64,000 nucleotides of DNA from Chiloscyllium plagiosum (lineage: Eukaryota): NCBI RefSeq assembly GCF_004010195.1, contig NC_057749.1:14295142-14359141 (forward strand). Reading direction: 5' to 3'. Of this stretch, positions 2,007 to 64,000 are shown in pieces; the stretch's first letter is position 1; each line of letters starts with the position of its first letter. Below the pieces are notes generated by a model, which saw only the letters and a program-made list of their open reading frames with translations, was not told where the DNA came from and ran no database searches. The position numbers and the translations under genes were made by a program.

Positions 2007-3020
2007 TTAAACTTATACCCTCTAGTTTTGAACTCCCCTTCCCTCAAGAAAAGATCATTGCTATTTACCTTCTATATGCCCCTCATGATTTTATAAACCT
2101 ACTCTGCTCAGGTGAGGAAAGTCCCAGCCTATCCTGCCTCTTCTTATAGCTCAAATCCTTCAGTCCCAGCAACATCCTTGAAAATCTTTTCTGCAGTCTC
2201 TCCAATCAAATAATATCCTTCTTGTAGGAGGGCAACCAGAACTGCACACAGTACCTCAGAAGTGGCCTAACCAACATTATGACATCCAACTCCTATACTT
2301 AATAGTCTGAGCAATGAAGGCAAGCATGCCAAACACCTCCTTTACCATCCTGTCTGTGATGCAACTTTCAAACAACTAGAAACCTAAACCTCTAGGTCTG
2401 TCTGTTTGACAACACTCCCCAGGACCCTACTACTTACTGTGCAGGTCCTGACCTTGTTCATCTTGCCAAAATGCAATACCTCGCACTTATCCAAACAGAA
2501 CTCCACCTACCATTCCTCAGCCCATTTGCCCAATTGATCAAGATCCCTCTGTAATCTTAGATAATCTTCTTCACTGTCTACTATACCAATTTTGGTGTCA
2601 TCCACAAACTAACCATGCTTCCTATATTCTCATCCAAAGCGTTTATGTAAATGACAAACAACAGTAGACTCAGCACTGATCCCTGTGGAACACTGCTGGT
2701 CACAGGCTTCCAGTCTGAAAAGCAATCCTCCACCACCATGCTATCTCCTACTATTACACCAATTTTGAATCCAATTGAATCCCATGTGATCTAACTTTAC
2801 TAGTCTACCATGCGGAACCTTGTCAAAGGCCTTGCTAAAGTCCATATGATAATATCTATTGCTCTGCTTTCAGAAATCTTCTTGGTCACATCCTCAAAAA
2901 ATTCCATCAAGTTTGTGAGACATAATTTCCTACCCACAAAGCCATGCTAACTATCCCTAATCAGTCTTTGCCTGTCCAAATGCTTGTAAATCCTCTCTCA
3001 GAATCCCCTCCTATAACTTA
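2007..3020 (-). mobile_element. CR1 LINE ORF2 fragment, decayed
   Basis: Collinear with the CR1 at 23644-26200 (e.g. GCCATG.TRACTATCCCTAATCAGTC, AGCAC.GATCC.TGTGG). Confidence 0.85.
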
Positions 3021-4022: not shown

Positions 4023-4352
4023 CTGCAATGCGGTAGTGATATAAAAATAATTTAACCCATTAACCCTTTGACAACTGAACCACCAAGTTATTTGCCACAA
4101 AAAATATTTTGGTATCTCTTGTTCTATCAAACTGCGTCTTTGTTTCACCATCTATACATTAGGAAAGTCAGGCAGGGCGTTAAGCAGGAGAATACAACAT
4201 GTGTCTTATAGTTATATTTATACTACCACACTTCAAAATATTCAACAGATTTATCTACACCTTAGTTGGTCAGCTGAGGAAGCTTCTCCTTCAAATCCCA
4301 CATTTTGTCTCATGTTCCCAAGCAGCTATCTTGGTCCGCCTCTGTTTCGTGT

Positions 4353-4558
4353 TAAAGAGTGTGGTGTTGGAAAAGCACAGCCATTCAGGCAGCATCTGTG
4401 GAGCAGAAGAATCGACATTTTGGGCATAAGCCTGATGAAGGCTTATGCTCGAAACATCAATTCTCCTGCTCCACAGATGGTAACTGACCGGCTGTGCTTT
4501 TCCAGCGCTACACTCTTCGACTCGGATCTCCAGCATCTGCAGTCCTCAGTTCTTCCCT
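4353..4558. mobile_element. PLE-derived palindromic non-autonomous element (variant A)
   Basis: Inverted arms (GGAAAAGCACAGCC / GGCTGTGCTTTTCC), CTGATGA..GAAAC at the centre (4432-4455), perfect 12 bp TSD TCTGTTTCGTGT at 4341-4352 and 4559-4570. Confidence 0.8.
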
Positions 4559-4767
4559 TCTGTTTCGTGTCTACATCTACCTCAGTGACGTTATCCAAAA
4601 ACATATCCGATTCTACAGGTGATGATCCTATTACTTCCCCACAGTGCCCGATTTGCTAAATTGACTGTCCAACATCTAGTACTGGTTGAGAAGAAATTTC
4701 CTCCAACTAAATATTGGGAAGATCAAAAGAGCTACTGTCTTCAGTCCCTGCCAGAAGTCTTTACTAG

Positions 4768-5516
4768 GCAAAAGTAAGGACTGCCGATGTTGGAGATTAG
4801 AGTTGAGAGTGTGGTGCTAGAAAAGTACAGCAGGTCAGAAAGCACCCGAGAAGCAGGAAAATCGACATTTCAGGCAAAAGCCCTTCATCAGGAATGAGGC
4901 TGGAAACCTGGGGGGTGGAGAGATAAAAGGGAGGGATGAGGCTGGGGCAAAGGTAGCTGAGAATGCAATAGGTGGATGGAGGTTGGGGTAATGGTGATAG
5001 GTCAGTGTGGAGGATGGAGCGAATAGGTGGGAAGGAAGATGGACAGGTAGGACAGGTCAAGAGGGCGGTGCTGAGCTGGAAGGTTGGAACTGGGATAAGG
5101 TGGGGGGAGTTGAAATGAGGAAACTGGTGAAATCCACATTCCAAATCTGCCTCAGGCCCCTCCAACCCCATGGCATCAATGTGGATTTCATCAGTTTCTT
5201 CATTTTGCCTCCCCCCACCTTATCCCAGTTCCAAACTTCCAGATCAGCACCCCCCTCTTGACCTGTGCTACCTGTCCATCTTCCTTCCCACCTATCGGCT
5301 CCACCCTCTCCTCCAACCTATCCCCATTACCCCCATCTCCATCCACCTACTGCATTCTCAGCTACCTTATCCCCAGCCCCACCCCCTCCCATTTATCTCT
5401 CCACTCCCAAGGCTCCCAGCCTCATTCCTGATGAAGGGCTTTTGCCCGAAACATCGATTTTCGTGCTCCTCGAATGCTGCCTGACCTGCTGTGCTTTTCC
5501 AGCACTACACTGTCAA
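4768..5516. mobile_element. Penelope-like element 3' end with inverted partial copy (variant A, long form)
   Basis: About 370 bp inverted arms meeting near 5142. The right arm starts with residual coding sequence LQPHGINVDF, resembling a PLE GIY-YIG C-terminus. Hammerhead motif in each arm. Imperfect 14 bp TSD at 4752-4765 and 5517-5530. Confidence 0.8.
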
Positions 5517-5639
5517 CAGAAACCTTTACTCACTAGCCTCCAAATCCATCCCTCCTCTTGACCACTGTTTAAAGCTGAACAGAGTATTTGTAATCTCAAG
5601 AGTCTGATACAATGCAGAGTTCAGTTTTTAGCCTCAAAT

Positions 5640-6120
5640 CCACTGTCCCCTATTCCACCCCTAAAACATTAATAACCAAATCCCAAATTCCAACACTTAA
5701 TTGTTGCAAGTTTATCCAAAACCTTTGCTGTTCTAAAAGGTATTACATCCAATTTACCAATTACCTCTCTGTTTACGGATCTACAGTGGCTACTGGCCCT
5801 GCATCACTTTCATATCCCTCCACAATCTCATTCAGCTCTACAAGTCTATGAAATTTCTCCTCTCTTCTCATTATGTTCTCATGCATACACCCCATTTTAT
5901 ATCACTTCACTATTGGCAGCTATGCTTTCAACTGCCTCGGCCCTTAACTCCAGAATTCCCTTTCTAAATTCCTCCACTGCTTTAGCTCACTTTATTCATT
6001 TTAGAAATTCCTTAAAAGCTGCCTCTCTGACAAAGCTTATTTAACTATCCTATCACCTTCATACTTCTCAGTGTCAAATCTTATTTAATAACATTCCTGC
6101 ATAGTGCTTGTGACATTTTC
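5640..6120 (+). mobile_element. L2-type LINE 3' end, old
   Basis: ATTGGCAGCTATGCTTTCAACTGCCTCGGCCCTTAACTCCAGAATTCCCT...CTTAAAAGCTGCCTCTCTGACAAAGC resembles L2 3' ends. Confidence 0.6.
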
Positions 6121-6212
6121 TAGGCTTTATAAAACTTCAATTCTCAATCAGTTAAGTGGAGAAACTACAAATGGCCTGTATGCCACAAGGCTGTTGCAGG
6201 AAGAAGACACAT

Positions 6213-6325
6213 TTAAAGTTCTTCCTGGTGACTTCTTGACTGACAGATGCCCATTTTGGCCCAGACAAGGTCTGTACAATTCCCCAGATAGTGCTCAAGG
6301 TACTGCATCACTTCAAGAATACGAT
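6213..6325 (-). CDS. Candidate terminal coding exon (xRILEVMQYLEHYLGNCTDLVWAKMGICQSRSHQEEL*)
   Basis: Long pyrimidine tract with TACTAAT and an aag acceptor; only the phase-1 frame stays open. No homologue recognised. Confidence 0.25.
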
Positions 6326-9246
6326 CTTTGGGAATTAGTAAACAACAGAGAAAATTAAGGAGAGAGTAGAAACACATTGTAATAATGAAATCCTTGTTGT
6401 CACAATGGTAAGTCTTGCTTATTGTATCATTAAAAAAATTAAAGAATAGGTGCAATATGATTTTTATTAGCATGAGTTTTAAACCAAACGGAGAAAGTAT
6501 GCAGATTTCAAATAAAAACTCTGGATCCCTGTCTCACACTTCCTATTTGCCAACATTCTAACTTGAGTATTTCTGGCCTAATTATTGAGACACCCACTGA
6601 CCAGTACAGAAGCCAATGAGGCCATGATTTAGTACATAATTAAGTGTCTAATTTTATATGTAAACAAATACAGTGGAAAAAAAAGCTACTTGCAATATGC
6701 ACAAATATACACATCAACAAGAGTTAATGGTTAAAATTTAGTCATCAGAATTTTATATAAACCTGTTTAAAACAGAAAAAAGTTCCAAATTTTGTTCAGA
6801 TTTATTTGCTATCCAGTGTTATTTAATTAGTTCAAGAATAATGTTAACAATGAAAAAATATTTGTAACTTGAAACTGCTCTACTGTACTGTTTATATTTT
6901 TCTATTCCCCTACGTTAACTGCTTACAGCAGAACTTACATTACCTAACTCAGTACTGCCATGATGCAGTTTAAGTATCAGACAGCACTGAACGACCAGTC
7001 TAACTCTCATAATTATATAATCATCATTGTTGAAGCAAATTCATGCACAGTGTCAAAAATCACCGATTGGACTTTTTGTCATTATCTAGTTCAACTCTCA
7101 AAAACAAGCTTACATTTTACTTAAACTACTGCTGGAGCACAAATGCCACAAGTTTTAAATAACCAAACACATATGTATTTGTGTTACAAATACCGCATTT
7201 GTATATCACATCGTCACAACTGCATTTCAACGTACAGGAGACTTCTCAGATGTATCTATCGCCTGGAGCAGATTGTTGTAATTCATGTTTTTCTAAATCT
7301 AGAACTTCACCAAGTAATCTCAGTAGGAATGCCTATTGTCCTCTATGAGCCAAGATTTATATGTTACAGAATTAATTATTTTATAAAAGGAGGTAGCATG
7401 GATATTCACAATTAACTTCTTCTGCTGTTCTTCCCAAAAATGCAGAAAGCACCACACTGAGAACGTTTGGTTGAGATTCAAAATGATCAATTAATTTGTA
7501 AGGTAATTTTAGAGAATGAAAAACAAGCACAGAAATGATATTGATAGTATGAATAATGTAAAAAAGATGGTACCTAGTCCTATGAACTGGTTCATTCTCC
7601 TCAAGATGCATTTCATATAGTCAGTTAATCTATTAGATTTCTAGGACAAATTTCCTCATGCAATATGTGCACACTCATAAACCAATATTCAGCATTCTCT
7701 TCAGCACTAAAGATGAAGTAGCCACAACAGAACTTTTATCATAAAAGAGGACTTGCTACACAAGGGCTATTCTTCATACTTCCCTTGCTGTCAGATATTA
7801 TGATGAATTAGCCATATAGATAAACATCTACCTCCTCACTCTAAAAATATGGATAAATTAACATTTGCCTCAAAGCTAAACTATTCCTAAAGTCTACAGC
7901 ATCTGTTACTGGAATTAGAATTAAATGCCTAGGCTTTTCTTAGAAACCACGAAATCAATAGCCTGAATTCGAAGCCTTTAAGGATTTTAGCCAGACAACC
8001 TGCGGTCTTCTCTGTACTTAGAAAAAGCTTTTGCCTAGAAATATTGCTGACTAAGATCTACTGATCAATCTAAAAGCTCATATTTTTAAAGTAGTTATGC
8101 ATTTTGAAGCTCATTGCAACTCTGCTTCTTTCTCTCATGCATTGATACAATGGCCTTGATTGCTATGAAGGGTGCTTTACCCTACATTTTCAATACCTAA
8201 GAAAATCATTTTTAAGAAGTTTTGTTGCTTGTTAAAAATATCACATGTACAGTTAAAAAAAAAAACTGGGAAAATGACCACGTTCAAAAGATCAATTAGA
8301 ATTCAAGTTCTACTGGTTATTCATCCATGATGAAATAAAATTAATAAACAAAAGGTTTTTGTCGATTTAAGATATCTGAACACAATAACACTTTGAAAAG
8401 GGAAAGGTTATACTAGCTGAATGCACAGAAAGAATGGTGCAGCCCAAGAACCATTCAGCCCCTAAGTCCACATCAGTGTTTCTCTCCACAGCTGTTTTTC
8501 TAATCCTACATTTCAGCTTGCCCCCCATAATCGTTAATATGTCATTTCTTCAGAACGATTTAGAAGTATTCTTTCATTAAAATTTAAGGGCTCCCTGGTA
8601 CAAAGATCTACAACAGCAATTGGTCCCCATCTATTACCAAAATAAGTATTTTATAAAATCCACCTCAACTCTTATGATCTTCTACCTATGCCCTTTTGTT
8701 AGCCTCATGCTGACAGGTAGAAACCATCGATCACTACTTACCTCAACATAACCCTTCATAACTTTCAAAACCTCTATCGTCAGAATCTTCCCACAATCTT
8801 CCCAGCTCTAGTGAAATAAACACTAGCTTCTTAACCAATATCCCTCATTCCTAGCTTAACCTAGACTTGAGACACCAGTCTACAACTAAGATCAAATGTG
8901 GGAAAGGGTACGCTGCTTCGCCTGACAAAGATAAACTGGATGAAAACAAAATATCCTCTTTAATTAAAATCTTATTACAAAAAGAAAATTGGCTTAACAT
9001 TAAAAAAAGCAAGTCTAAGGCACATCAATTGTGTAGGGGAAATACCGTCAAGGTAATCCACAGGTTTAAAGTACTTGGAGCCTGGTTTGATGCTTCACTT
9101 CTCTTTTCTCAATTGTAAAGTCATTTGTTTTTATGAAAAGTTTAAAAGGAAAAAGGAGTTTCCATGAAGGGATTTTTGGCTGCTGGCCATCTCCAATTGA
9201 TTAATATAAATTTCACAAGCTAGGAGTAGGCTATTCAGCCCTCAAG

Positions 9247-9383
9247 GTGAAAGTGAGGACTGCAGACTGGAGATTAGAGCCGAGAGTGTGGTGCTGGAAA
9301 AGCATAGCAGGTCAGGCAGCATCCAAGGAGCGGGAAAATTGACGTTTCAGGCAAAAGACCTTCATCAGGAAGGACTCTCAACT
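9247..9383 (-). mobile_element. Variant A PLE end (single arm) inserted in a CR1 tail
   Basis: Minus-strand CTGATGA-AGGTCTTTTGCCT-GAAACGTC. 16 bp TSD CTATTCAGCC(C/T)TCAAG at 9231-9246 and 9384-9399. Confidence 0.8.
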
Positions 9384-9848
9384 CTATTCAGCCTTCAAGC
9401 CTGTTCTGTTCTTGGGCAAGTAAATGCTGTTTAAAGTGTAGTCATGTCCTAGAGTGGTACTTGGAGAGGGAATCTTGTGGTTGAAAGGTAAGTACGCTAC
9501 CAACGGAGCTGATTTACACAATGATTTAAATTTTGAAATCTTAAATGGAATCTTAAGCAGATTTTAACTAATGTTTTTTAAAAAAAATCAGTAATCAGAT
9601 TATCTGACATTACAGAATGTTTTCCAAATTATTTAAACTTGCCTTACTTTTAAATGTTAATTTGTGCTTTGATCTTCAAGTCAGGGCAGATGTGCAATTC
9701 ACAGCATCTAACAAGATTTCAAATGCCAATAATGTTCAAAGGAACAGCAGGCAAGAAACACATCTAAAAAACTAAGTGTCAGCCACATTACTGGTGACTC
9801 TCTCATGCAGTTTTGCTACAGACTGGAATAGTACACTGCCAAATCATT

Positions 9849-9970
9849 TTGTGGAGGTGGCGGTATTGGACTGGGGTGGACAATGTCAGAAGTCACACGA
9901 CACTAGGTTAGAGTCCAACAGGTTTACTTGAAATCACAAGCTTTCAGAACACAGGTCTTTCATCAGGTGC
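9849..9970 (-). mobile_element. Variant B PLE-like end with hammerhead motif
   Basis: Reverse complement of 47010-47132. Minus strand reads CAC-CTGATGA-AAGACCTGTGTTCT-GAAA-GCTT-GTG. Confidence 0.7.
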
Positions 9971-11224
9971 TCTCAATTGAGCTGGTACAGTTTTGAAACA
10001 ATATGCCTCAAGAAACATTTTTAATGTCTATTAATTAAAATAGCCAAAAGGGGGGCCTTTTTGTGAAATGGATTTTGTTGGCTAAAGTCCACTGCACATT
10101 TATGCTGTATAAAGATTTCAACTTATGAGTAGAGAACCAAGCATTTGACAATGGATATAGTGATACCAGTTTTCTTGTTGGAATGGATTCTGAAACTACA
10201 GCAAAGGTCCTTCCGCAAACGCGTATTTTCTAAACAAAAAACCTTTAGGCTTGGACACCAGATTCACAAATCACAGTTCTTTCATTGTGTTTTCTTTCAT
10301 TCAAGCTGGTAATCAATAAAGTCAGTAGGTCACAGATACATTACTTATACTAGAATGTTGAGAGATACTTGAAACATTTGTCCAACTCCTCTCTTTTACT
10401 GACCGGCTGATTTAAATTGTGAGCCTGCATTGGGCAATTTAGGATTAATTTTTACCACAGAGCCTCAAGGTGATGTTGAAGAATTGTGGGAAAAACTACA
10501 GTCTGATTTAGAACACCGATCTACAATATTTCAGCACACTTTAGGGCACAAAGCAGGCTTCAATAAACTATTTTGTTGTGATGTAAGTCAGTAAACCATT
10601 TAATCTTCATAGTCAAATAAAGTCAGATCAAGAATTCTTGAAACATTCGTCTAATGTTTAGCTTCCAATATGTAATTGAAGAGACTAAAGTAGAAATAAA
10701 AAAATCTTTAATAAAACAACTTTTTTTGGTGGAGACCCTTCATCTGAAGTTTCCTGTTTTATTCCAAATATCAAGGTTTTGCAGAGGAATATAAAAACAG
10801 AGGAGGAGTAGAGCAATTGGCCCTTCGAGACACCTTCACAATTTCATAAAATCATTGCTGTTCTGATTTGGTTTTCATTAATTTAACATTACCAATTTTA
10901 GTGCATAATAATCTTATGTGCCCTAGATCAAACTTTATAAATCTGTTGAAGTAAAGAAGGGGGAATCAGTACCTCACTGATCTTTAATTTAATATATTGG
11001 CATGCAATCCAGCCATCCAATTTCCACTGTCAATATGAATCAGAATCTAAGCTCCAATGTATAGTCAGTTATTAATTCAGCTCCATTTTATGGAGAAAAC
11101 AAATTGTCATGGCATTTTGATCTATATTTACATACATCAAGTCATTATGCTATGCAATAACTAACTGGTCATTTAAGGGATTCTTTTCATGCTGTAATAC
11201 ATTATGAATTTGATGCAAGAGTAA

Positions 11225-11392
11225 AATAATGTAGATGCTGAAACACAGAAATAACAGCAAAAACTGCTACAAGTGTTCACCAGAACGGGCAGCATCTCTG
11301 GTGAAAGGTTATCACTGTAACATTAACTCCTTCTCTCCCCACAGGTGTCATTAGACCTGCCACATTTTTCTAGCATTTCATATTATTTCAGG
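11225..11392. mobile_element. Old degenerate palindromic PLE-derived element (variant C-like)
   Basis: GATGCTG..AGAAATAA..GGCAGCATC and its inverted counterpart; strongly decayed. Confidence 0.45.
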
Positions 11393-11502
11393 GTTTATTT
11401 TATCCAATAAAATGGATTTGTAATCCACTCTAGACCAGACTGTTGAGAAGCAGTTCTCATTTGTTCCTGTTGAAGAAAGCTCTATAGAAGGACTAAACAA
11501 AA

Positions 11503-11690
11503 AAAGACAAAGCACTGCAAATGCTGGAAATTCCAAATGATAACAAATTGCTGCAGAAACTCAGCAGGTCTGGCAGCATCTGTTGAAAGAAGGCAGATTT
11601 AATGTTTTGGGTCCAGAAACATTAATCCTGCTTTCTCTCCACACATGCTACCAAACCTGCTAAGCTTCTCCTGCAAATTCTGCAAATTTC
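11503..11690. mobile_element. Palindromic PLE-derived element (variant C)
   Basis: AGCAGGTCTGGCAGCAT / ATGCTACCAAACCTGCT inverted arms meeting at TTAATGTTTTGGGTCCAGAAACATTAA. Confidence 0.65.
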
Positions 11691-11859
11691 TGCAAATTTG
11701 CTTGCCATAAAAGTATTAATCCACAGAAAGCCTGGTTGGCTGTGAAGCAATTATCTGATCAGCTATTTACTACCTTCTCTGGTGAAAAAGAACAAAGACA
11801 AGAAACACTTATGGGACTGAGCCACCTTGATTGGCGAACCAAGTATATTAATACTAGAC

Positions 11860-11990
11860 GAAAGTGAGGACTGCAGATGCTGGAGATCAGAGTCAAGATT
11901 GCAGTGGTGCTGGAAAAGCACAGCAGGTCAGGCTACATCAGAGGAGCAGGGAAATCGACTTTTTCGGGCAAAAGCCCTTCCTCAGGAATC
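11860..11990 (-). mobile_element. Variant A PLE end (single arm)
   Basis: AAAGTGAGGACTGCAGATGCTGGAG...CGGGCAAAAGCCCTTCCTCAGG. Imperfect 13 bp TSD at 11842-11854 and 11991-12003. Confidence 0.75.
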
Positions 11991-12211
11991 AGTACATTAG
12001 TACATTAAATGTGCCTGTGGATATATAGCCATCACTGAGGACTAGAATACTTTTCACCTAAGCTCCAAAAATAATACTTGCTAGCAGTCTTAACAAGTGG
12101 GTCTGTCCTACCCAACAAATAACAAGAAACCTGTTTAAAAAACTTGCAAGTTTTAACTCACGATCATCCTGTTTGGTTAAAATGAAGCACGGCCACAGTC
12201 TACAATAGCTT

Positions 12212-12423
12212 AGATCAGAGTGGTGCTGGAAATACTTTTACGGCAGGTCAGGCAGCATCCGAGGAGCAGGAAAATAGACGTTTCAGGCAAAAGCCCTTCA
12301 TCAGGAATAGAGCCTCTATTCCTTTTGCCTGAAACGTCGATTTTCCTGCTCCTTGGATGCTGCCTGACCTGCTGTGCTTTTCTAGCACCACTCTGATTTC
12401 CAGCATCTGCAGTCCTCACTTTT
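12212..12423. mobile_element. Variant A palindromic element
   Basis: Inverted arms; 17 bp TSD GCCACAGTCTACA(A/G)TAG at 12192-12208 and 12424-12440. Confidence 0.8.
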
Positions 12424-13129
12424 GCCACAGTCTACAGTAGTTAAGCTTTCCACCCTTCCAAGTATTAAGCCACTTATCGCACAAGGATGTCTTGATTTCT
12501 AGTATATCCACAGACCACAGCTTATTTATGACCATTGTTCAGGAGCTTTTAATTCTACAGTTAGTAATGTTATAGAACTCAACTTTAATTAGATATTTTT
12601 ATATAATTCAGAATATCTTTGGGTGTGTTTTTTTCTGCTAAATTATTTGCAAGGTGTCTGGATTGAATGTCTGAGATAAATAGAGTCGTCATATGGAAAA
12701 AATGCACTGAAAAAAGAATCTTGCTGCAGTCTACAACGGATGCCATAGCAACACTGCTAAAATATTGAGATCATATGCCAGAGACTAAAGCAACCACAAG
12801 CAAAAGCTAGAAGGCACATCTTTTCAGCTGTAAATCACTTCAGCCACCGACCAGCTGTTACCTGTCATACTTATAACCAATCTCAGACAACAACAATGCA
12901 GATCCTCAACTGTTTCTTACATGTGGTTTAACTGAAGCAAAAAAGTTACCCATTTCATTACACATCATTACAGCACAGATTAGTCTCATGACTATACAGG
13001 GTTACCTCACCAAACCAATTGCAGCTGATAGTTTTAATAATGGCTGGGGCATTATTTTAACTTTACCATCCCAACTGTTAATATATATTTTTTAAGATTG
13101 TGTTTTATCGTGTGTTACATGCAAGTGTC

Positions 13130-13740
13130 GTCATGTTCTGGCACCATCTTGAAATACTGAATATCATGCACACGTTTACTGCAATAGAGTTCATCTTTCT
13201 CTCTTCTTCTTGTTCATCCTTTGCTGCGCCTGCAGTTGCCGAAAGACACTGGCTGGGATCTCTGTAATGGGCTCTGGGATCTCAGTTCAGGTCTCCGCTG
13301 CTGCCATTCCTGTGACCATGGCATCCAAGCTGGAGCCATGGGTCTGAGGAAGGGTGGGTTCAGTCACTCCTCTTCCGTAGCGAGCGGTCCTGCAGACACT
13401 GCCACCAGTCATTGGTTTCGGTTCCTCCACCATCCGTTTTGCTGATGCCTCTCTCTTTCAAGCACTCGAACCTAGCTGCAGACCTGGAACTTTGGTTCAG
13501 TCTGCAGATCCAGGCCAGGGGAGTCAGCCTGGAACCTGCTCTGCACTTACAGGGAGACCCTGGGCTGGGGTAGAGCCATGTCTGCCTCGTCCCGGCATTG
13601 CTGCCACCGGCAGAGTCCTCCTCCTTCACTGGGCCTCGACCACTGCTGCTGCCGCTCTCCAGGCTTCAAAAAAGAAAAAAGAGCAGTTGGCAGTGGATGA
13701 GCCCCAAGCTCAGTCCTGCAACTCCGCCACCATCTTGAAT
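13130..13740. repeat. GC-richer probable interspersed repeat, unclassified
   Basis: Abrupt composition shift; CACCATCTTGAA occurs near both ends (about 13142 and 13728). Confidence 0.3.
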
Positions 13741-16199
13741 GTCTTGTTGGTTTTGGATTTATTGGACAGTCACCACAAACCTACTAAACCCACACTTTCA
13801 CGTTTTGAAAACAAGTTTGATTTTGTTCTCTCTCAGTATTCACAACTGCACTTTGCATAAGGCATCTTTAGTCACTTGATAGCAATTGGAAGCAGGAACT
13901 TTAGATTTGTTTTTACTCCTTAATGGAGGAACATAGAGGACCAGCTGTTGCTCCAAATTAAGACCAGCTAACTTAACACACAAAACAAATCAAACCAGGC
14001 ACTTTCTGGTCCGTATGACTTCGTGTCACATCACAGGATGTGTTTACTTAACTAAGCCTTCAGAAGCATTCAGAATAAATTGTTTCAACTCCAGAAATCA
14101 ATACCACATGCCTAACTATCTGTTAATTGCTAAAACATGAAGACATGCAGCATCTTGTTCTGAATGGATATCTTTATTATTTTGACCTTTGACCATTACA
14201 ACCTGCAATTGAGAGCGCCTTCAATAAATTTTACTGTGAAGTTGCACACTAAAATTATGCATAGCCATTGCAATTTCCCACCTTGATATGTAGCTTCATG
14301 TCTTTCTGTTCTCAATTGGCTACTTATCTTCCCCAAATACAAAAACTGTATCATGCCCAACAAATGCATTCAATGTATTGAGTAACTTCAGCTAAACAAT
14401 TTCATTTCACATTGATTACCAGGGATAGATTTAAATTGGTTGTATAAGGACCTGAAAAGGTTAGTACTAATGGTAGAAAATTTCATGAAGTTCCCTAGAC
14501 TTATGGCAGAACCTAATGAAGGTAAAAAACAGAATCCCTTAAGGAATTTGGTTTGTACTGTCAATGAGATGGGAACCTGTGACCATGCTGGATTGGCACA
14601 AATGTTTTCCACTCTCTTCAATTTTAAAGAATATTGAGAGTGAAAGAGCCAGCACAGTTTGTGAGAAAAAGAAACAAGCAGTGAGACTGCCACTGAGCAG
14701 CACAGCTAACTCGAGCCAATGTATAAATCTGTAACTAATGTAAGTTGGAATGCAACACAACTTGGTGAACAAATAGCTCTAACAGTTTCAAATTTTATTT
14801 TAGATGTGAAGGTGACGCAGAAGAGAAGACCAAACAGAATATTTGACTTGTTTTTCTTCCCAGAAAGAATTCCCAGTAACTATGAGAGATATCATGCCAC
14901 ACCAGAAGCAATTATAAATAGCAGACGGAAGAAGTCAACATGGTGATTTCGCCGATAATGAAATCACGGAGGACAAAGAAGAAAATCCAAACCAATGAAC
15001 AAGTTGAAATAAGAGGTTTACATATTTCAGCACAATTCCATTTTGATTGAGAATACAAATGTGTTGACACAAGTTGAAGATGTCCTCCATACAACTGGGT
15101 GGAAGCCACTACAGAGAATCAATGTTCAAGAAATTCCCTGATTTGGAGATTCAGGACACTGCTGAAAATAAATTGCCTGGTTTAGCAGGGATGCCATCCT
15201 CCAAAAAGAAAATCTAAAAGATTAAAGATCCTCTAGTTTAATGGGACCTACAGATCACAGATAATTGAGGAAAATAATCAAAGATAATGGAGTTCCACCA
15301 AACAATCAACCAAGTCTTCCAAATTCTCAGCTAACCTGTTACAATAGAATAGTGAAACCTCAAGACTGCCTGAAGTTGGTGGAGACAGAGTAATGGCAAA
15401 TATAGTTAAATACACAAACATGTATAAAATTATGAATGGGAAACTGCTTATAGGAGAGATATTGTTGTACAGATCTGTAAAGTTTAATGCTGTGGATTGC
15501 CATAAGCAGTACCTACCTTGAGGATTTCACATAATCGTGTGGACAAAATAACCTAGGATCTCAAAAATGTTGGGAGCTAACATCTGGTCCTTCTCAAAAT
15601 CTCTGTAACAAGGTCCACTAGATAAATGCAGCCTGTAACTACTTCATAACATTCATTAAACTATATGTGGTTCACGACAAGTGAACCTTCCATTTAAACA
15701 AGAAAGTGATTTTCCATCATCACATTAGGCCAAGTTAGCCATGTAGTTTCCTACATTTAGTGAGGATGGAGCAACTTTCATCATGACCATCAGCTTACAG
15801 TATGGTGGGCTGACATGTGCATACTACATTTCCCAGGCTAAAGTCTAACCTACTTCCATGACCAAGATCACCCTGTTGCCAAGTCAACTTTTCTTCAGTT
15901 TTTTTTTATCAATTATATTTCCTGATGTGCCATCACATATGATTTCTGCAACTGAAGCATACAAAAGAAATAAATTTAACGTCTCAGTAGTTATTCTAAA
16001 TTTGTAAACATCACCTTATCAAATACACTTCCCCTAAAAACAGTACTGAACAAAGACCTCCTAAAAAATTCTGCATACACAATTTCAGCAATTTTAACTC
16101 TTCATTTTTTGACAAATGTTATGTGAATTATATATTTGTACAGTATATATTATATTTGTTTAAGAGATCAGATTTTAAACGACTGGCATATAGTTGTTT

Positions 16200-17460: not shown

Positions 17461-17753
17461 TGTGGCCTGGTGGATCAGTGGTTAGCACTGCTGTCTCACA
17501 GCACCAGGGACCCAGGTTCAATTCTCACCTTAGGCAACTGTCTGTGTGGAGTTTGCACATTCTCCCCATGTCTGGGTGCTCCGGTTTCCTCCCACAATCC
17601 AAAAGATGTGCAGGTCAGGTGAATTGGCTATGCTAAATTGCCCGTAGTGCCTTAGTCAGGGGTAAATGTAGAGGAATGGTTCTAGCTGAGAGGGTCGGTG
17701 TGGACTTGTTGGGCCTGAAGGGCCTGTTTCCACACTGTATGGAATTTAATCTA
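17461..17753 (+). mobile_element. HE1-type V-SINE
   Basis: tRNA-like head (TCAGTGGTTAGC / GGTTCAATTC), V-domain TGTGTGGAGTTTGCACATTCTCCCC, CR1-like tail. Confidence 0.9.
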
Positions 17754-18368
17754 AAAAAAATGCAAAGTATTGCAGTCTAAAGTCTCAAGTATTAAAATGT
17801 CCTGATATTTTGTATCTGTTGACAGTACAAACCAAAACTACTCAAACCCAGAGCCTAGCAACAGAAGGAAGCTGCCAATTTATTATTCTTTCCCTCTAAA
17901 AGATAAAACTCTCAGTTCTTGTAAGTTTCAAGTATGTCTCCATTACACTTTTAAAACTACGTTAGATTCTACTGTCAGCACTGAAAGAATATGGCATCTT
18001 AATACAGTTTTTAAAAAAACTCTCTAAAATACACCTCCTATTACTTTGGTAATAGCCATAAACTTATACTGCCTGGTTATTGAACTAGCAGCTCCTTGAA
18101 TTGTTTTGCGAAATTAACATCTTACACTTTATAACATTAGACCCTCTTGAAATCCACCTTAATTTCTTGCTTCTTCAACTTTATTCAGTTTAATCATGGT
18201 TTAGCCCTCTAATCCAAAGCCTCAATGGTCAATTTATTCTCCCCGCTGGCCTTGTAGAAAAGGATACCATTAAGGGATAGTATATTCTTAGTGAGGCCTA
18301 ACCAGTAATTTGTATAGGTTGCACATGTTTCCTTTTTTTTGTACTTTTAATTATAACACTTCAAATTT

Positions 18369-24200: not shown

Positions 24201-24955
24201 GGTGGCACAGTGGTTAGCTCTCCTACCTCACAGCACCAGAGACCCGGGTTCAATTCCCGCCTCAGGCAGCTGACTGTGTGGAGTTTGCACATTCTCCCCG
24301 GGTCTGCATGGGTTTCCTCCGGGTGCTCCAGTTTCCTCCCACAGTCCAAAAATGTGCAGGTTAGGTGAATTGGCCATGCTAAATTGCCCGTAGTGTTAGG
24401 CGAAGGGCTAAATGTAGGGGAATGGGTCTGGGTTAGTTGCGCTTCAGCAGGTCAATAGACAATAGGTGCAGGAGTAGACCATTCTGCCCTTCGAGCCTAC
24501 ACCACCATTCAATATATTCATGGCTGATCATCCTTAATCAGTATCCTGTTCCTGCCTTATCTCCATAACCCTTGATTCCACAATCCTTGAGAGCCCTATC
24601 CAACTCTTTCTTAAAGGAATCCAGAGACTGGGCCTCCACTGCCCTCTGGGGCAGAGCATTCCACACAACCACCACTCTCTGGGTGAAGAAGTTTCTCCTC
24701 ATCTCTGTCCTAAATGGTCTCCCCGTATTTTTAAGCTGTGTCCTCTGGTTCGGCACTCACCCATCAGCGGAAACATGTTTCCTGCCTCCAGAGTGTCCAA
24801 TCCTTTAATAATCTTATATGTCTCAATCATATCGCCTCTCAGTCTTCTAAACCCAAGGGTATACAAGCCCAGTCACTCCAGTCTTTCAGTGTAAGGTCGG
24901 TGTGGACTTGTTGGGCCGAAGGGCCTGTTTCCACACTAAGTAATCTAATCTAATC
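24201..24955 (+). mobile_element. HE1-type SINE inserted in the CR1, itself split by a second CR1
   Basis: Head and V-domain at 24201-24453, tail at 24894-24955 ending (TAATC)n. Confidence 0.9.
24454..24893 (-). mobile_element. CR1 3' fragment (different subfamily) inside the SINE
   Basis: FRTEMRRNFFTQRVVVVWNALPQRAVEA; CTATTGT-type tail; AGGTC duplicated at 24449-24453 and 24894-24898. Confidence 0.9.
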
Positions 24956-26400: not shown

Positions 26401-26703
26401 TCAGTGGTTAGCACTGCTGCCTCACAGCGCCGGAGACCCAGGTTCAGTTCCCGCCTCAGGCGACTGACTGTGTGGAGTTTGCACGTTCTCCCCGTGTTTG
26501 CGTGGGTTTCCTCCGGGTGCACCGGTTTCCTCCCACAGTCCAAAGATGTGCAGGTCAGGTGAATTGGTCATGCTAAATTGTCCGTAGTGTTAGGTAAGGC
26601 GTAAATGTAGGGGTATGGGTGGGTTGCGCTTCGGCGGGGCGGTGTGGACTTGTTAGGCCGAAGGGCCTGTTTCCACACTGTAAGTAATCTAATCTAATCT
26701 AAT
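26401..26703 (+). mobile_element. HE1-type V-SINE, young (CpG-rich)
   Basis: Head, V-domain and (TAATC)n tail; CpGs retained. Confidence 0.92.
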
Positions 26704-30711: not shown

Positions 30712-31012
30712 TTAGATTAGATTACTTACAGTGTGGAAACAGGCCCTTCGGCCCAACAAGTCCACACCGACCCGCCGAAGCGCACCCACCCAGGCCCATT
30801 CCCCTACATTTACCCCTGCACCTAACACTACGGGCAATTTAGCATGGCCAATTCACCTAACCTGCACATTTTTTGACTGTGGGAGGAAACCGGAGCACCC
30901 GGAGGAAACTCACGCAGACACAAGGAGAATGTGCAAACTCCACACAGTCAGTCGCCTGAGGTGGGAATTGAACCCGAATCTCTGGCGCTGTGAGGCAGCA
31001 GTGCTAACTACT
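30712..31012 (-). mobile_element. HE1-type V-SINE, young
   Basis: Close reverse-complement match to 26401-26703. Confidence 0.92.
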
Positions 31013-34000: not shown

Positions 34001-34258
34001 GTAAAAATGAGTATTGAAACAAAACAGCAAAGTACGAGACTGGAAAAGGCATGGTGGATTGCAGACCTCCATGACTCAGGAATTATACCCCACCAAAATC
34101 ATTCAGTTGAAGGCATATTTCACGCAAGGAATTGATTCAAGGTATTCTTCCCCTAACCATCTGTGATTCTACTTGCCCTCACTTAATTGCCTGACATGAT
34201 GCTGGCCTTGATGGGAAATGGATTTTACTGGTGTAGCACCAATATTTTTGAAAAACGA

Positions 34259-34444
34259 GGGAGCAAATTACTGCAGGTGTTGGGACCTGTGCTGAAAACA
34301 ACGAATACTGGAGATCACAGCGGGTCAGGCAGCATCCACGGAGAGAGCTCTGATGAAGAGTCATCGAGACTCGAAACATTAGCTTGCTCTTTCTCCATGG
34401 ATGCTGTCTGACCTGCTGTGATCTCCAGCATTTGTTGTTTTCAG
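34259..34444. mobile_element. Palindromic PLE-derived element (variant C) with central hammerhead
   Basis: Arms CTGAAAACAAC.AAT.CTGGAGATCACAGC.GGTCAG and its inverse; imperfect 14 bp TSD at 34245-34258 and 34445-34458. Confidence 0.8.
34346..34384 (+). ncRNA. Minimal hammerhead ribozyme motif
   Basis: AGCT-CTGATGA-A-GAGTC-atcga-GACTC-GAAA-CATT-AGCT: 4 bp stem I, perfect 5 bp stem II, stem III CA where CG is expected. Confidence 0.65.
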
Positions 34445-36506
34445 TTTTTGAATAATGATTTGTTCACATGAAAGAATATCCTTATTGAAGTGGTTACAGC
34501 CATCCCATCAAACATGTAAAATACATATTGGTCATAAATCCATTCTCACTGCAGGCTATCTACTGAGAATGTTGAAAATCCTGAAAATTCTTCTCAAATG
34601 GAGGTTGTTTTCTTCTTTGATACGGCTTTAGGAATGGAAGCTGTCAGCCATAGTTTAACATCAACTTCCCCAATTAGTCCAGCGCCCCAAGGATGTCCAC
34701 ACACAAGGCTGGGATTGGGGCAAGCTGTTACCATGGGGATATATATATATATCTGTCTGTCTGTCTATCAATCAATCAATCAATTCTGATATGACACAAC
34801 ACACCTCTCAAGCTGATAGGAGTTGAACCTAGACAGCCTGGTTCAGAGGCAGGGACACTACCACTGTGCCATAAGTACTTTAAAGATGTTATCATGTGCT
34901 ATGTCATTTGGTCAGGGCTTCCACAGTCAGAGTCAGGAGTATGTTTTTTCCACTGGTTGGGGACATTTTGCACATTGAGTGCAGTATTTTGTCATTTTCA
35001 AAGCAGAATGCTGAGATTATGGATTAAGCTGGGTATGGTTGCTGTTTCCACATGTAATCACGTTTGACAAATCAGAGGTTAACATGGCTTCCATATCCTA
35101 GAAAGATATTGGTATGTATTGCAGAGAGCCTTCCCCTCTGTCAGATGACTTAAATCTTGTTGAACTAGATGCTGGTCTGGCAAACACAAACAAGGGCAAA
35201 GCAAATAGTCTCCCATCTTGGTGCACTGGTAAAACAATGGCTACTGGCACACTGATCAACTGCGATGGGAAATGGTCACTTTGTCCTAATCTAACACAAG
35301 GCAAAGGTAATAATCAAGTCAAAATAAACAACAACAAAGAAACAACCCTGAGAATAGTAGGCTCCAGTTCACTGCTTTGCACAATCCAGAAACTCCGACA
35401 GCAGCTCATTCGTTTTAAGAATTAGCCCTACAACTGATGGTGGTTTTTCATCACGAGCTGTGAAGAAGCTGTCAAGGCTTTCATCATAAGTTCAAGGCTA
35501 CAGCCACTTTCATAAACCTGTCATCAGCTGACAATACTTGTAGTGATATGGACTGGTGTACAAACGGTCTCAGCTGTGCCAACTATACTTGATGCTGCTG
35601 ATATTTCCAATCAAGAGAAGGACGATATTTAAATGGTCTCCCACAGGGCAGTGTCCCACTCATTTTTATAAACACCTACACTAGCGACATACCAACCATA
35701 TCATATTGTATTTATATTTATGCCAATACATGGAATTAAGATGGGGTAATGGACATATGGAGAGAGATCTGAGTCAAAAGAAAAAGGTTCCTTAGAGAGG
35801 TAAATGGATTGTGAAGAAGTTTAGGAAGCAAGTTTCAAACAACAGGGCCATAGCAGCTAACAGTTGTCCTGTCAATGGAATACAAAAGGGAAATAGGACA
35901 CACAAAACCCATCATGAGAGGGCTGAGTGCTAGACAGCCTAATTACTTTCAGCAACTGGGCCATAGTCCTAGATAACTGAGGTAGGCCTTCTAAACATCC
36001 CATTTCAGCACTCAACCACCCTCACAACATTTGATAATTTACTTTCAGGATTGACAAACAGCAAAGATTATGCATAATAGGGCCCTTTACACCTCAGGAA
36101 ACCTCTCCACTTGACCCACCTCATTATGCTTCAAACCAGTTCAGAAATCCCATTTGAGAACAATATTTCTGCAAAATCTTAAACTAATGTGATTCAACAA
36201 TTTTTGCTTAACAATCTAGATGATGTTTGAATCTTAATTTTAAGATCAGCAGCAGGAGATATAATTAGAGGTCAATAATGCGTTCAACATATTATGAATG
36301 GCACACTTTGTGTTAAATAGCAAATGGTTCATGGGTGCATTAAAATTAAACAGATTTTATTATTTCCTCATCCCAGACTCAATATTTGGAGAACATGGCT
36401 AATTTTATAGAATAATGAAGCACATTAACCTAAAATACAAATGGGCAAGTTATCCTTCATACATCATCTCTACAAGTTTCAATCATTTTTAAAGTAAGTA
36501 AGTTAA

Positions 36507-36799
36507 TAGATTACCACAGTATGGAAACAGACCATTTGGCCCAACAAGTCCACACCGATCCTCCGAAGAGTAACCCACCCAGACCCATTCTCCTACCCTA
36601 TATTTACACAGACTAATCCAGCTAGACAATATGGACAATTTAGCATGGCCAATTCACCTGACCTGCACATCACCCGGAGGAAACCCATGCAGACACGGGG
36701 AGAATGTGCAAACTCCACACAGACAGTCACCCAAGGCAGGAATCGAACCCGAGTCCCTGTTGCTGTGAGGCAGCAGTGCTAACCACTGAGCCACCATGC
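36507..36799 (-). mobile_element. HE1-type V-SINE with an internal deletion
   Basis: GAATGTGCAAACTCCACACAG and GCAGTGCTAACCACTGAGCCACC. Confidence 0.9.
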
Positions 36800-40157: not shown

Positions 40158-40174
40158 AGCTGTGTATGGAGAGT

Positions 40175-40418
40175 TGAGAGTGTGGTGCTGGAAAAGCACA
40201 GCAGGTCAAGCAGCATCGAGGAGCAGGACAGTCAACGTTTCGGACAAAAGCTCTTCATCAAAAATCCAACAGTTGCTTCCAAATATACCTGTTGGACTAT
40301 AACCTGGTGTTTGCCCAAAATGTCGACTCTTCTGCTCCTCGGATGCTGCTCGACCTGCTGTGCTTTTCCAGCACCACACTCTCGACTCTAATCTCCGCCA
40401 TCTGCAGTCCTCACTTTT
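40175..40418. mobile_element. Variant A palindrome with a variant B fragment at its centre
   Basis: Inverted arms; 40280-40310 matches 47051-47081; imperfect 16 bp TSD at 40159-40174 and 40419-40434. Confidence 0.8.
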
Positions 40419-40810
40419 GCTGTGGAAGGAGAGTCAGAGACTGCAAGAGATAGGGGTGAAGTCAGCGAAGCTAAGGGAACTGGAAAAAGAAATTGGCAAG
40501 GGTAGATTTCAACTTACCCAAAAATATTGTTTGTATAAAAGGTTGATCCCCTACTTTGTGGCTGAATGTTTAGAGCTTGAAATTCAATTTTTATATGATA
40601 ACATGTGGCATGCACATGATTCTGCAAAAAAAAAAGTAGGCTTCTGGCAATGATTTGCATACATCACATTTGAACATTGACAAAGAACTATTTGCTTTCT
40701 GATGAGATATCAAGAAGAAAATGCAAGGTGGCTCATAACCCCTCATTAACTACAGACTGGCACAGACGGATAAATGACTGACTGCTGATATGGGACGTGG
40801 ATTTGCATTT

Positions 40811-46924: not shown

Positions 46925-47132
46925 CAAAAGTCACACAACGCCAGGTTGTAGTCCAACAGGTTTATTTGAAGTCACAAGCCTTCGGAGCACAGCCCCTTCA
47001 TCAGATGAAGTCACCTCATGAAGGGGCAGCACTCCAAAAGCTTGTGATTTCAAATATACCTGTTGGACTATAACCTGGTGTTGTGTGACTTCTGACTTTG
47101 TGCACCCCAGTCCAACACTGGCACCTCCACAA
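46925..47132. mobile_element. Variant B palindromic element with two decayed head-to-head hammerheads
   Basis: About 80 bp inverted arms. Centre reads TCAC-CTCATGA-AGGGGCAGCACTCC-AAAA-GCTT-GTGA on plus and TCAT-CTGATGA-AGGGGCTGTGCTCC-GAAG-GCTT-GTGA on minus. Confidence 0.75.
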
Positions 47133-53327: not shown

Positions 53328-53450
53328 TCTGACGGGCATATGCCCGAAACATAGATTCTCCTGCACCTCGGATTCTGCCTGAGCTGCTGTGCTTTTCCAG
53401 CACCACACCTTTTGACTCTGATTCTCCAGCATCTGTGGTCCTCGCTTCCC
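53328..53450 (+). mobile_element. Variant A PLE end, starting within the hammerhead
   Basis: GGGCATATGCCCGAAAC...TGCTTTTCCAGCACCAC...CCAGCATCTG. Confidence 0.7.
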
Positions 53451-53785
53451 CCCAATGTACAGTACTGTGCCCAAGTTAATAAAGGGTGGCAGGATACTGG
53501 CCTCTCTGCAGTAATGTCATCAACCCTTTTTCTAAATTGACAGACTTTACATGATCCTGTAGAAATTATGGAAATATTCAGCTTCAAAATCCATGTCCTA
53601 ATTTAGAATCAGCATACCTCAAATGTAGTTTGAATGTGTGTGCGCACACGCGCGCAGAAACGTGGACTCACTGATGAGGGCCATACCTCTAATGATTTAA
53701 ATCAATGCAACATTCCTATAAAAGCCACTGTAGCATTCCTATCCTAACGATCCTGTATCAAAGGAATGGCATCAGAGCTTGGAAA

Positions 53786-56695: not shown

Positions 56696-56761
56696 ACCAT
56701 CTCAACCACAAACAAACTGTCCAGTAGAACAGGCTTCACTTGAGTCCTAGTGGTCGCAGTA

Positions 56762-57400
56762 ACCACACTACCATACATCAAGAGCATTTCCAAACTGACA
56801 ACCAGACTAGCCACACTACCATACATCAAGAACATTTCCGAACTGATAGCCAGACTACTGCGACCACTAGGACTCATAACAGCACACAAACCAACAAACA
56901 CTCTCAGACAACAACTCACCAGAACGAAGGGCCCAATACCCAGCATGAGCAAAACCCCATGCAAGGACTGCACAAAAAACTACATAGGACAAACAGGAAG
57001 ACAGCTAACGATCCGCATCCATGAACACCAACTAGCCACGAAACGACATGACCAGCTATCCTTAGTAGCCACACACGCAGATGACAAGCAAGATGAATTT
57101 GACTGGGACAACACTACTATTATAGGACAAGCCAAACAGAGAACAGCCAGGGAATTCCTAGAGGCACTGCACTCATCCACAAATTCAATCAATAAGCACA
57201 TCGCCCTGGACCAATATACCGACCACTGCAACAGACAGCTAGAACTGAAAACCGGAGCGGCAGATTCAAACCACTACAAATGCCGGAGGAAAGATCACAG
57301 AAGCGCTTCACAGGAGGCTCCCAAGCACTGAGGATGTCACCTAGACAGGGGACGAAACATCTGCAACACAAATTCCCAGCTCGGCGAACAGAACCACAAT
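56762..57400 (+). mobile_element. Penelope-like element 3' portion (GIY-YIG endonuclease), inactive
   Basis: LPYIKNISE..ARLLRP, PCKDC...YIGQTGR.L..RIHEH, H.....FDWDN..I......REFLEA.HS; ends in a hammerhead motif. Confidence 0.92.
57325..57364 (+). ncRNA. Minimal type I hammerhead ribozyme motif at the Penelope 3' end
   Basis: GCA-CTGAGGA-T-GTCACC-tagaca-GGGGAC-GAAA-CATC-TGC: stem I GCA/TGC, stem II with one mismatch. Confidence 0.75.
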
Positions 57401-63844: not shown

Positions 63845-64000
63845 AGAGCAGCAGGTCAGGCAGCATCCAAGGAACAGGAGAATCGACGTTTCGGGCATAA
63901 GCCCTTCCTGAAGAAGGGCTTATGCCCAAAATGTCGATTCTCCTGTTCCTTGGATGCTGCCTGACCTGTTGTGCTTTTCCAGCAACACATTTTCAGCTCT
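63845..64000. mobile_element. Variant A palindrome truncating the CR1, running off the window
   Basis: Inverted arms around GGGCATAAGCCCTTCCTGAAGAAGGGCTTATGCCC. Confidence 0.8.

Follow-up and report, generated by a model that had tools for sequence, protein, structure and literature searches.

How do short palindromes that carry a predicted hammerhead ribozyme spread through a shark genome, as DNA transposons, as copies of a small RNA of their own, or as remnants of a larger retroelement? The window, meaning here the whole stretch of 64,000 nt that was analysed, holds eight units of such a repeat, variant A, which had been named in a first-pass annotation. All eight were recovered when window arms were compared with the 64,000-nt window by BLAST, with identities of 75-92%. 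The copies diverge by 5-13% from the in-window consensus, and at present they are probably passive fossils. It is likely, in our reading, that variant A represents old, 5′-truncated insertions of the pLTR of endonuclease-bearing PLEs, arranged in the inverted-pLTR-plus-tail layout, in a shark that is probably a carpet shark of bamboo/epaulette type. This pattern is itself already published, and variant A is mostly ordinary.

Layout of the insertions

The variant A unit consists of a minimal type I hammerhead, a body of about 65 nt and an optional tail of 34-37 nt. The units are given below with four comparator families from the same window, labelled B to E; hammerheads are as predicted.

E1 unit, 4355-4558: two-armed; TSD 4341..4352 / 4559..4570, 12/12 matches
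E1 short arm, 4355..4432, minus strand: without tail, inner end within hammerhead stem II
E1 long arm, 4431..4558, plus strand: decayed minimal hammerhead, pLTR body, 37-nt tail
E2 unit, 4766-5517: two-armed; TSD 4752..4765 / 5517..5530, 12/14 matches
E2 tailed arm, 4766..5140, minus strand: ORF-like end, pyrimidine-rich 3′ stretch, hammerhead (4891-4864), pLTR body, 36-nt tail
E2 tail-less arm, 5141..5517, plus strand: hammerhead at 5428-5455, 35 nt more upstream sequence than the tailed arm
Putative C-terminus of a PLE ORF (CLRPLQPHGINVDF...), 5148..5261, plus strand: stop at the same codon in both E2 arms
E3 unit, 9247-9385; TSD 9231..9246 / 9384..9399, 15/16 matches
E3 tailed arm, 9247..9373, minus strand: hammerhead core intact (9368-9341)
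E3 stub of the opposite arm, 9374..9385, plus strand: 12 nt, terminating at the short-arm end point
E4 solo unit, 11855..11990, minus strand: starts at hammerhead stem I, 37-nt tail at its end; TSD 11842..11854 / 11991..12003, 11/13 matches, the weakest of the six
E5 unit, 12209-12426: two-armed; TSD 12192..12208 / 12424..12440, 16/17 matches, the 3 nt at the start of the right copy being common to the element end
E5 short arm, 12209..12312, minus strand: hammerhead core intact (12304-12277)
E5 tailed arm, 12314..12426, plus strand: hammerhead core without 11 nt
E6 unit with its TSDs, 40159..40434: short arm 40170-40266 (minus), tailed arm 40310-40420 (plus); TSD 40159-40174 / 40419-40434, 14/16 matches
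E6 filler between the arms, 40267-40309: 43 nt of PLE family C
E7, 53330..53452, plus strand: single tailed arm, decayed
E8, 63849..64000: head-to-head pair, arms joined at the hammerhead by TTC microhomology, cut by the window end, within a LINE remnant
Family B, 34245..34458: same layout, TSD with 12/14 matches, 35-nt tail on the left arm, hammerhead on the tail-less arm only
Family C, 46925..47130: two arms head to head, abutting at the front edges of their hammerheads, the right one tailed; weak TSD of 10/14 matches (P 0.27)
Family D, 11503..11683: head-to-head pair, left arm longer; no TSD found
Family E, 56807..57400, plus strand: truncated PLE with a GIY-YIG end, then a minimal-hammerhead-like motif (about 57327-57361, by eye)

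All six TSD pairs named in the first pass are in place, with lengths of 12, 14, 16, 13, 17 and 16 bp for E1 to E6 and matches ranging from 11/13 to 12/12. Against a null of 3000 random flank pairs, an end-anchored test gave P values of <1/3000, 0.003, <1/3000, 0.008, <1/3000 and 0.0003 in the same order, which are optimistic because the boundaries were chosen after inspection of the sequence. In a looser, unanchored test, the score of E4 (7) was matched by 75 of 400 random pairs and that of E2 (8) by 24 of 400. These putative TSDs are read from the flanking repeats, and element ends overlap them by 1-5 nt, which blurs their lengths by that much. No TSD was found in the flanks of E7, and E8, being cut by the window end, stands outside the count. 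The orthologous-site comparison covered the left junction of E2 and revealed no empty site: in the contigs of organism C the E2 tail end is joined to the same left flank, and those of organism B gave no coverage at this point.

The units had been said to share one fixed end. The long-arm end is real, and a second fixed end, at the short arms, had been missed: short arms finish within about 5 nt of one point, as judged from five short ends, and long arms run 34-37 nt beyond it (34, 36, 37 and 37 nt in the four copies measured). The fixed-end motif GCAGTCCTCACTTT stops 3-9 nt before the true element end and, with up to 2 mismatches allowed, has seven window matches where 0.63 would be expected; six of the seven are variant A copies, four of them exact. 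The end of E7 differs from the motif at 4 letters (by eye), and that of E8 falls beyond the window. Exactly one arm is tailed in all eight two-armed insertions whose outer ends both lie in view (E1, E2, E3, E5, E6, B, C and D, from four families, with E8 left out as cut), and this asymmetry is the known 30-40 bp tail of PLEs (PMC8557442, PMC11167929). The tail-less arm reaches further upstream in three of the eight pairs, by 35 nt in E2, ~20 in E6 and ~45 in B. Deletion after insertion, possible at the centres of old palindromes, would blur which arm was longer.

The proposal of an inverted partial copy was supported; an adjacent inverted, 5′-truncated copy, with the whole unit in a single TSD, was found in E1, E2, E3, E5 and E6. 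The description of the palindromes as hammerhead-centred holds for E1, E5 and E8 only: E2 and E6 have their centres elsewhere (in E2 it is displaced from the hammerhead by 250-290 nt in the upstream direction), E4 and E7 possess one arm each, and the second arm of E3 is 12 nt long. At up to 1 mismatch, the other window occurrences of this 12-mer are three arms of the variant A family. Arm junctions fall at hairpins or palindromes in E1, E5, E8 and D, the centre of E5 being a 9-bp perfect palindrome around 12313, and priming ends show 1-5 nt of microhomology. Divergence amounts to 12% between the arms of one copy versus 17% between copies, which is consistent with one shared template, and copy-specific variants are common to both arms in E1, E6 and E8. 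An arm-shared deletion in E5 was dropped as evidence, as it fits a subfamily variant also present in an RNA loose end.

The hammerhead and the probable link to PLEs

A relaxed descriptor of the minimal hammerhead matched the window nine times, against a mean of 0.9 (maximum 4) in 40 shuffles; five of the nine matches lie within the variant A family, and the motif is real. Six of the 15 rows of the hammerhead table were out of register and were left out. Rfam returned no family at gathering score on the window sequence and no hammerhead model among its 25 weak matches, and on the variant A palindromes it returned microRNA matches, all sub-threshold. Folding of five single arms gave z-scores from -2.5 to +0.5, with no consistent stability. 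The predicted motif resembles the minimal hammerheads of metazoan PLEs, as set out in the accessible part of PMC4209133, in its CUGAUGA core, one unpaired base before stem II, G10.1-C11.1 pair, minimal palindromic helix III and mostly solo occurrence, whereas stem II has 4 bp in variant A and 7-8 bp in Schistosoma. The same part describes pairs of opposite-strand hammerheads with a spacing of 100-700 bp, which Cervera and De la Pena (2014) interpret as truncated PLEs, and it neither names sharks nor describes a 5′-end pile-up at stem I. Paired hammerheads within one variant A insertion are likewise on opposite strands.

Most window copies begin at the hammerhead front (stem I), about 30 nt upstream of the predicted cut site, and seven of the eight extend upstream by no more than about 10 nt. 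Contig pieces matching variant A number 50,162, 50,699 and 53,476 in three species; summed depth is not to be taken for a copy number. Their best-supported loose ends lie behind 4894-4897, which is 3-6 nt upstream of the hammerhead core (233-533 records each, with unique flanks), and among the best 24 of 2138 rows none falls at the predicted cut site (4863/4864). The sharp 5′ edge at the hammerhead front is thus genome-wide, as in most window copies. Viral, metagenome and prokaryote genome contigs gave no match to variant A copies. A poly(A) single-cell RNA run, sampled at about 2 in 100 and blind to small or circular RNA, gave 1229 matching reads on both strands, none at ≥99% identity; 98% of them continue into unlike sequence, and neither their begins nor their ends pile up on variant A. 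These reads fit variant A copies inside other transcripts. A look-up of RNA sets containing the region listed none, which has no bearing on expression.

In E2, the variant A unit is linked with a pyrimidine-rich 3′ stretch of about 250 nt and with a coding-like end. Both arms encode one peptide, of which a 43-aa end was used for searches, and the subfamily letters of E2 are identical to those of solo copies. The coding-like end is itself highly repeated; 278 contigs extend upstream of 5140 with an agreement of 0.7, the 30-nt consensus of these extensions being in frame with the E2 peptide. The peptide may be akin to the L-x-T-x-x-P-x-G-x-N end of Neptune-type GIY-YIG endonucleases. One protein search gave no candidate for it and another 85, none at E ≤10; there was no match in Pfam or in the Atlas, and seven family E PLE proteins did not match E2. 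Two matches were discarded as spurious, one to an ankyrin-repeat protein without a matched stretch and the other to a low-complexity repeat. Within the window, the variant A family has no RT part, and no reading frame runs without a stop across the hammerhead and on to the end of the tail in every one of its subfamilies. A PLE-type RT is shown for the neighbouring family E, a proven PLE whose end order (ORF, hammerhead, short end) serves as a positive control for order. None of the 150 longest non-repeat ORFs (237 listed) matched Pfam, and therefore no host gene was identified in the window. The PLE origin put forward in the first pass appears sound on grounds other than a database match, namely the architecture, the motif at the peptide end and the neighbouring proven PLE.

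Units of EN+ PLEs, in the available portions of PMC3846280 and PMC8557442, are like variant A in their 5′ truncation, head-to-head inverted copy, pLTR hammerhead, tail of 30-40 bp at one end only, enclosure of the whole unit in a TSD, and palindrome or microhomology at the junction. Rotifer PLEs, as described in the former (Arkhipova et al. 2013), have an inverted pLTR, a 31-bp tail and TSDs of 8-10 bp, whereas the TSDs of variant A reach 12-17 bp at most. Unlike the units in those portions, most variant A copies are the terminal repeat alone, and their abundance is far higher. The portion available of PMC8557442 (Craig et al. 2021) regards it as undefined how the inverted structures of PLEs arise.

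Formation of the second arm

For insertions of PLE ends, the following course can be envisaged. The PLE protein would make a staggered cut about 9-17 bp apart, and the nicked target DNA would serve as primer through 1-5 nt of pairing. The RT would start inside the RNA at either of two sites one tail-length apart, as seen in vitro with an anole PLE. If copying of an uncleaved transcript began on its 5′ pLTR and ran off at its 5′ end, the common 135-nt solo unit would result; a start on the 3′ pLTR would yield copies like E2. The most likely source of the mirror arm would be the second nick, with priming on that same RNA at the remaining start site, after which the two cDNA ends would be joined by microhomology, by a short palindrome or by the hairpin of stem II. 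In L1 twin priming, both target nicks also prime cDNA and the inversion lies inside one TSD; there, however, inversion affects another stretch, located upstream, whereas in variant A one and the same stretch is copied into both arms, from two fixed starts. The closest in vitro likeness is Poseidon of Anolis carolinensis, for which nicking and extension of both target strands, two internal RT starts (bounding the tail) and use of uncleaved RNA have been reported (Frangieh et al. 2024, PMC11167929). Unlike variant A, the Poseidon ORF starts inside the hammerhead, and the main text of that paper leaves the inverted arm unexplained. The start site was alike on both strands in vitro, and one tail per pair is not forced by that result.

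As regards the inversion step only, the mirror arm might instead arise by fold-back self-priming of one cDNA, or from an antisense template (PMC3846280, available portion), with an endonuclease resolving the intermediate and the tail kept on one side (PMC8557442, likewise in part). We give this course somewhat less than an even chance. One tail per pair follows from it naturally, and the arm-shared variants and the hairpins or palindromes at the E1, E5, E8 and D junctions speak for it; however, in E2, E6 and B the tail-less arm extends upstream into sequence missing from the tailed arm, and the second arm of E3 is a detached stub. One folded cDNA cannot yield these arms without later deletion or a jump, which argues against fold-back.

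A tentative proposal, which we consider doubtful, is that double priming on one RNA is obligate, from the tail site and a site 35 nt upstream, and that solo units also act as SINE-like templates. Strand displacement would let both primed strands copy the same stretch, and double priming would explain one tail per pair, the arm-shared variants and the fact that either arm may be the longer. A solo unit could be a self-sufficient template without a 3′ end of its own, because RT initiation is internal. No paper stating obligate double priming or SINE-like solo units was found in the literature covered, which took in few subscription journals.

It is unlikely, in our estimate, that the solo 135-nt units form a separate non-autonomous family, SINE-like or retrozyme-like, with its own internal promoter and copied in trans; such a family could coexist with insertions of PLE ends as a second source of solo copies. 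The short upstream sequence of seven window copies and the genome-wide 5′ edge would suit it, a 3′ flank would be disregarded under internal initiation, in a rotifer pLTRs are enough for trans mobilisation (PMC3846280, in the portion available), and the variants shared by arms in E1, E6 and E8 hint at many donors. Against this, E2 combines the letters of the solo-copy subfamily with an ORF-like end, and the RNA run, for all its blindness to small or circular RNA, shows no pile-up. No tRNA head was found. The separate retrozyme-like RNA of the first-pass annotation was not supported, given this ORF-like linkage, the opposite-strand hammerheads, the lack of a tandem unit and starts away from the cleavage site. 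Non-LTR retrozymes, in the accessible text of PMC7229834 (Cervera and de la Pena 2020) and of bioRxiv 10.64898/2026.07.22.740005 (Li, Clavereau and Pollet), do resemble variant A as non-coding kin of PLE pLTRs with a type I hammerhead, and dispersed monomers and one report from a cartilaginous fish are described there. Retrozymes are, however, direct tandems of at least two hammerhead units that yield circular RNA, whereas variant A is solo or inverted; none of the 15 tandem-repeat rows of the window holds a variant A unit, and membership among the retrozymes therefore fails, as judged within the window.

Two independent solo insertions, head to head at one spot and followed by gene conversion between the arms, are very improbable. 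In vitro, the pLTR of the anole PLE is cut by the element's own protein (PMC11167929), the centre of E6 is the sequence of another family and conversion could explain the shared variants; yet in E1, E2, E3, E5, E6 and B a single pair of TSDs encloses the two arms, and all eight pairs have a single tail and arms of the same family. To MITEs or other DNA-transposon derivatives moving as whole palindromes, a reading that short, high-copy, palindromic units invite, we give practically no credence, and it is already largely refuted by TSDs that vary, by termini that differ by the tail in every pair, by centres and arm lengths that differ in every copy, by TSDs around the single-armed E4 and E3 as well, and by the hammerhead and ORF-like end inside units. 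The first pass had rightly preferred retroposition: fixed-length TSDs with symmetric TIRs are not seen in the window, where TSD lengths vary from 12 to 17 bp, arms are unequal, termini lack matched inverted ends and priming ends carry microhomology.

Meaning for annotation and for PLE biology

In annotation, the variant A palindromes belong under PLE ends, and not under MITEs or microRNA hairpins. With tens of thousands of insertions from several families in one shark genome, a direct count could separate double priming from fold-back.

Probable retroposed Penelope-like ends

The eight copies of family A (E1 to E8; E2 at 4766-5517), which a BLAST of the window arms against the window recovered where the first-pass annotation had placed them, are best read as retroposed ends of a Penelope-like element (PLE), neither MITEs nor retrozymes. 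Read in the ribozyme orientation, each unit follows the order of a minimal type I hammerhead, a body of ~65 nt and an optional tail. The hammerhead comprises a short stem I strand, CUGAUGA, one unpaired A, a 4-bp stem II, GAAACGUC and the 3′ stem I strand. A relaxed descriptor found nine hammerhead motifs in the window (G+C 38.6%) versus a shuffled mean of 0.9, five of them from family A, and an Rfam search gave nothing at gathering score. Family A arms diverge by 5-13% from their in-window consensus, with heavy CpG decay. Another minimal hammerhead with an intact core (998-1031), unlike those of families A to E, probably represents a sixth PLE family.

All six target-site duplications (TSDs) previously proposed are present, with matches of 12/12, 12/14, 15/16, 11/13, 16/17 and 14/16. 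Their end-anchored P values (<1/3000 to 0.008) are optimistic, because the element boundaries were placed by eye, and in an unanchored test E4 was unremarkable (75 of 400 random pairs were as good), as was E2 (24/400). No TSD was found for E7, and E8 is truncated by the window edge. In most cases the TSD and the element end share 1-5 nt, as would be expected from brief pairing between target DNA and RNA at priming. No empty insertion site was seen at the site examined, the E2 left junction, which is filled in the contigs of organism C, one of three species compared; the E2 insertion is therefore older than the species split.

The initial reading of these units as retroposed, PLE-derived and distinct from MITEs is supported, whereas the separate retrozyme-like RNA it invoked is not. 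Retrozymes, as characterized in PMC7229834, are defined by tandem hammerhead units; a tandem-repeat check found no tandem family A units in the window, and membership was rejected on this ground. Dispersed minimal hammerheads have been described by Cervera and De la Peña (PMC4209133), who report opposite-strand pairs 100-700 bp apart as truncated PLEs. A literature search found no description of this shark family, and the whale shark paper only records Penelope as present.

Coding link, expression and neighbouring sequences

The arms of E2 (~375 nt each, 87-88% complementary) both carry, upstream of the hammerhead, a pyrimidine-rich stretch preceded by an open frame; their peptides share 21 of 28 aligned residues and the position of the stop codon. 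Contigs from three species give dense coverage of this upstream part, and in one run 278 contigs extend past 5140 (agreement 0.7), their consensus translating by hand to RLGTLQPHGI, in frame with CLRPLQPHGI of E2. This peptide is a putative C-terminus of a Neptune-type GIY-YIG domain; protein and domain searches gave no confirming match, nor did it match the proteins of family E. Within 4896-5028, numerous contigs connect the hammerhead edge with 4985-5028 across other letters, which suggests several subfamilies that share the ORF end and the terminal repeat but differ in the 3′ stretch in between.

Family E serves as a positive control for this order: after its ORF end come a hammerhead-like motif and then a short end. 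Proteins labelled Chiloscyllium punctatum and Hemiscyllium ocellatum match its fragment at 56807-57400 with 76-85% identity, those of whale shark and zebra shark less closely, which marks the window as shark DNA. Relatives of family E contain RT and GIY-YIG. The truncated Penelope/Poseidon-type element (56744-57400), with a GIY-YIG end and terminal hammerhead-like motif, has a 48-bp tandem duplication (56763-56857) and frameshifts near 57210 and 57255.

In a poly(A) single-cell run, of which ~2 in 100 was read and whose reach excludes small and circular RNA, 1229 family A reads came from the two strands together; not one reached 99% identity to E2, 98% continued into unlike sequence, and starts or ends did not pile up. 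This pattern fits passive transcription of embedded copies.

Other repeats in the window are:
24977-25912, 48676-49053, 63434-63834 and 2279-3019, LINE reverse-transcriptase remnants (RVT_1 matches), presumably CR1-type
17462-17754, 24201-24453, 26400-26704 and 30712-31022, ~300-bp repeats of a 10-member family
36501-36799, 48189-48501, 53785-54096 and others, further members of that family

E8 lies at the edge of a LINE remnant, and the 10-member family is probably a common shark SINE or LINE tail (a candidate name). A near-identical direct duplication of ~220 bp (57717-57940 and 59107-59329, 1.39 kb apart) consists of non-repeat-looking DNA. The G+C-rich, low-complexity stretch at 13150-13750, where each strand carries long open frames and Pfam gave no match, is possibly an exon, a UTR or an unrecognised repeat.

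The template RNA

In six of the eight family A copies an arm ends no more than 10 nt upstream of the hammerhead core, the exceptions being E7, whose start is decayed, and E2, which continues upstream. Genome-wide, among 24 listed rows of 2138, the best-supported loose ends fall behind 4894-4897 in each of the three DNA runs, with unique DNA beyond them. This edge coincides with the opening base of stem I and precedes the predicted cut by ~30 nt. The RNA that was copied was therefore uncleaved, as in the anole system (PMC11167929), and it probably began at this same base. If synthesis started internally, on the 5′ repeat of an ordinary transcript, precisely the solo unit would result, so a separate small RNA would not be needed, and solo family A units could themselves be donors. 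Two copies (11991 and 40266) start with a G, in place of the C of E2, ahead of ATTCC, and in two of three DNA runs G is also the loose letter seen most often behind 4895; this G could be cap-derived or simply a subfamily letter.

Two fixed ends and the mirror arm

The single fixed end first reported is joined by a second: five short arms (those of E1, E2, E5 and E6, plus the E3 stub of 12 nt) end within ~5 nt of one point, past which the long arms extend 34-37 nt. Three comparators share the family A layout with other sequence:
34245-34458, family B
46925-47130, family C
11503-11683, family D

Across families A to D, all eight two-armed insertions whose outer ends are both visible carry this extension, which is the PLE tail, on exactly one arm. 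Craig et al. (PMC8557442) describe PLEs with an inverted 5′-truncated copy, in which an extension of 30-40 bp is often found at one end only, Arkhipova et al. (PMC3846280) a 31-bp tail with TSDs of 8-10 bp, and Frangieh et al. (PMC11167929) a tail mapping between two internal RT start sites. Solo units occur in family C (9850-9969, starting at hammerhead stem I, tail present) and family D (55955-56075), both with no TSD found.

Divergence between arms is 12% within a copy versus 17% between copies (8.7% versus 14.2% without CpG), and E1, E6 and E8 have variants common to both arms, features that would fit one template or later conversion alike. The arms meet at the stem II hairpin in E1 and family D, at a 9-bp palindrome in E5 and at a 3-nt microhomology in E8 and family B. 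The centre of E6 (40267-40309) is 43 nt of family C, apparently itself a tiny head-to-head fragment, from either an inter-family template jump or later insertion into the palindrome centre.

Two arms would arise if both nicks primed at two start sites of one RNA, and such double priming fits all eight pairs. Fold-back of one cDNA matches E1, E5 and families C and D, whereas in E2, E6 and family B the tail-less arm extends upstream into sequence absent from the tailed arm, and the second arm of E3, a detached stub, is awkward for it. With later deletion added, fold-back stands about even with double priming, because the copies are old and palindrome centres unstable. In vitro, the anole PLE has start sites alike on the two strands (PMC11167929), a lack of strand difference that does not favour strict start-site pairing. 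The one-tail rule is the remaining point of value, since it offers a way to test the origin of PLE inversions.
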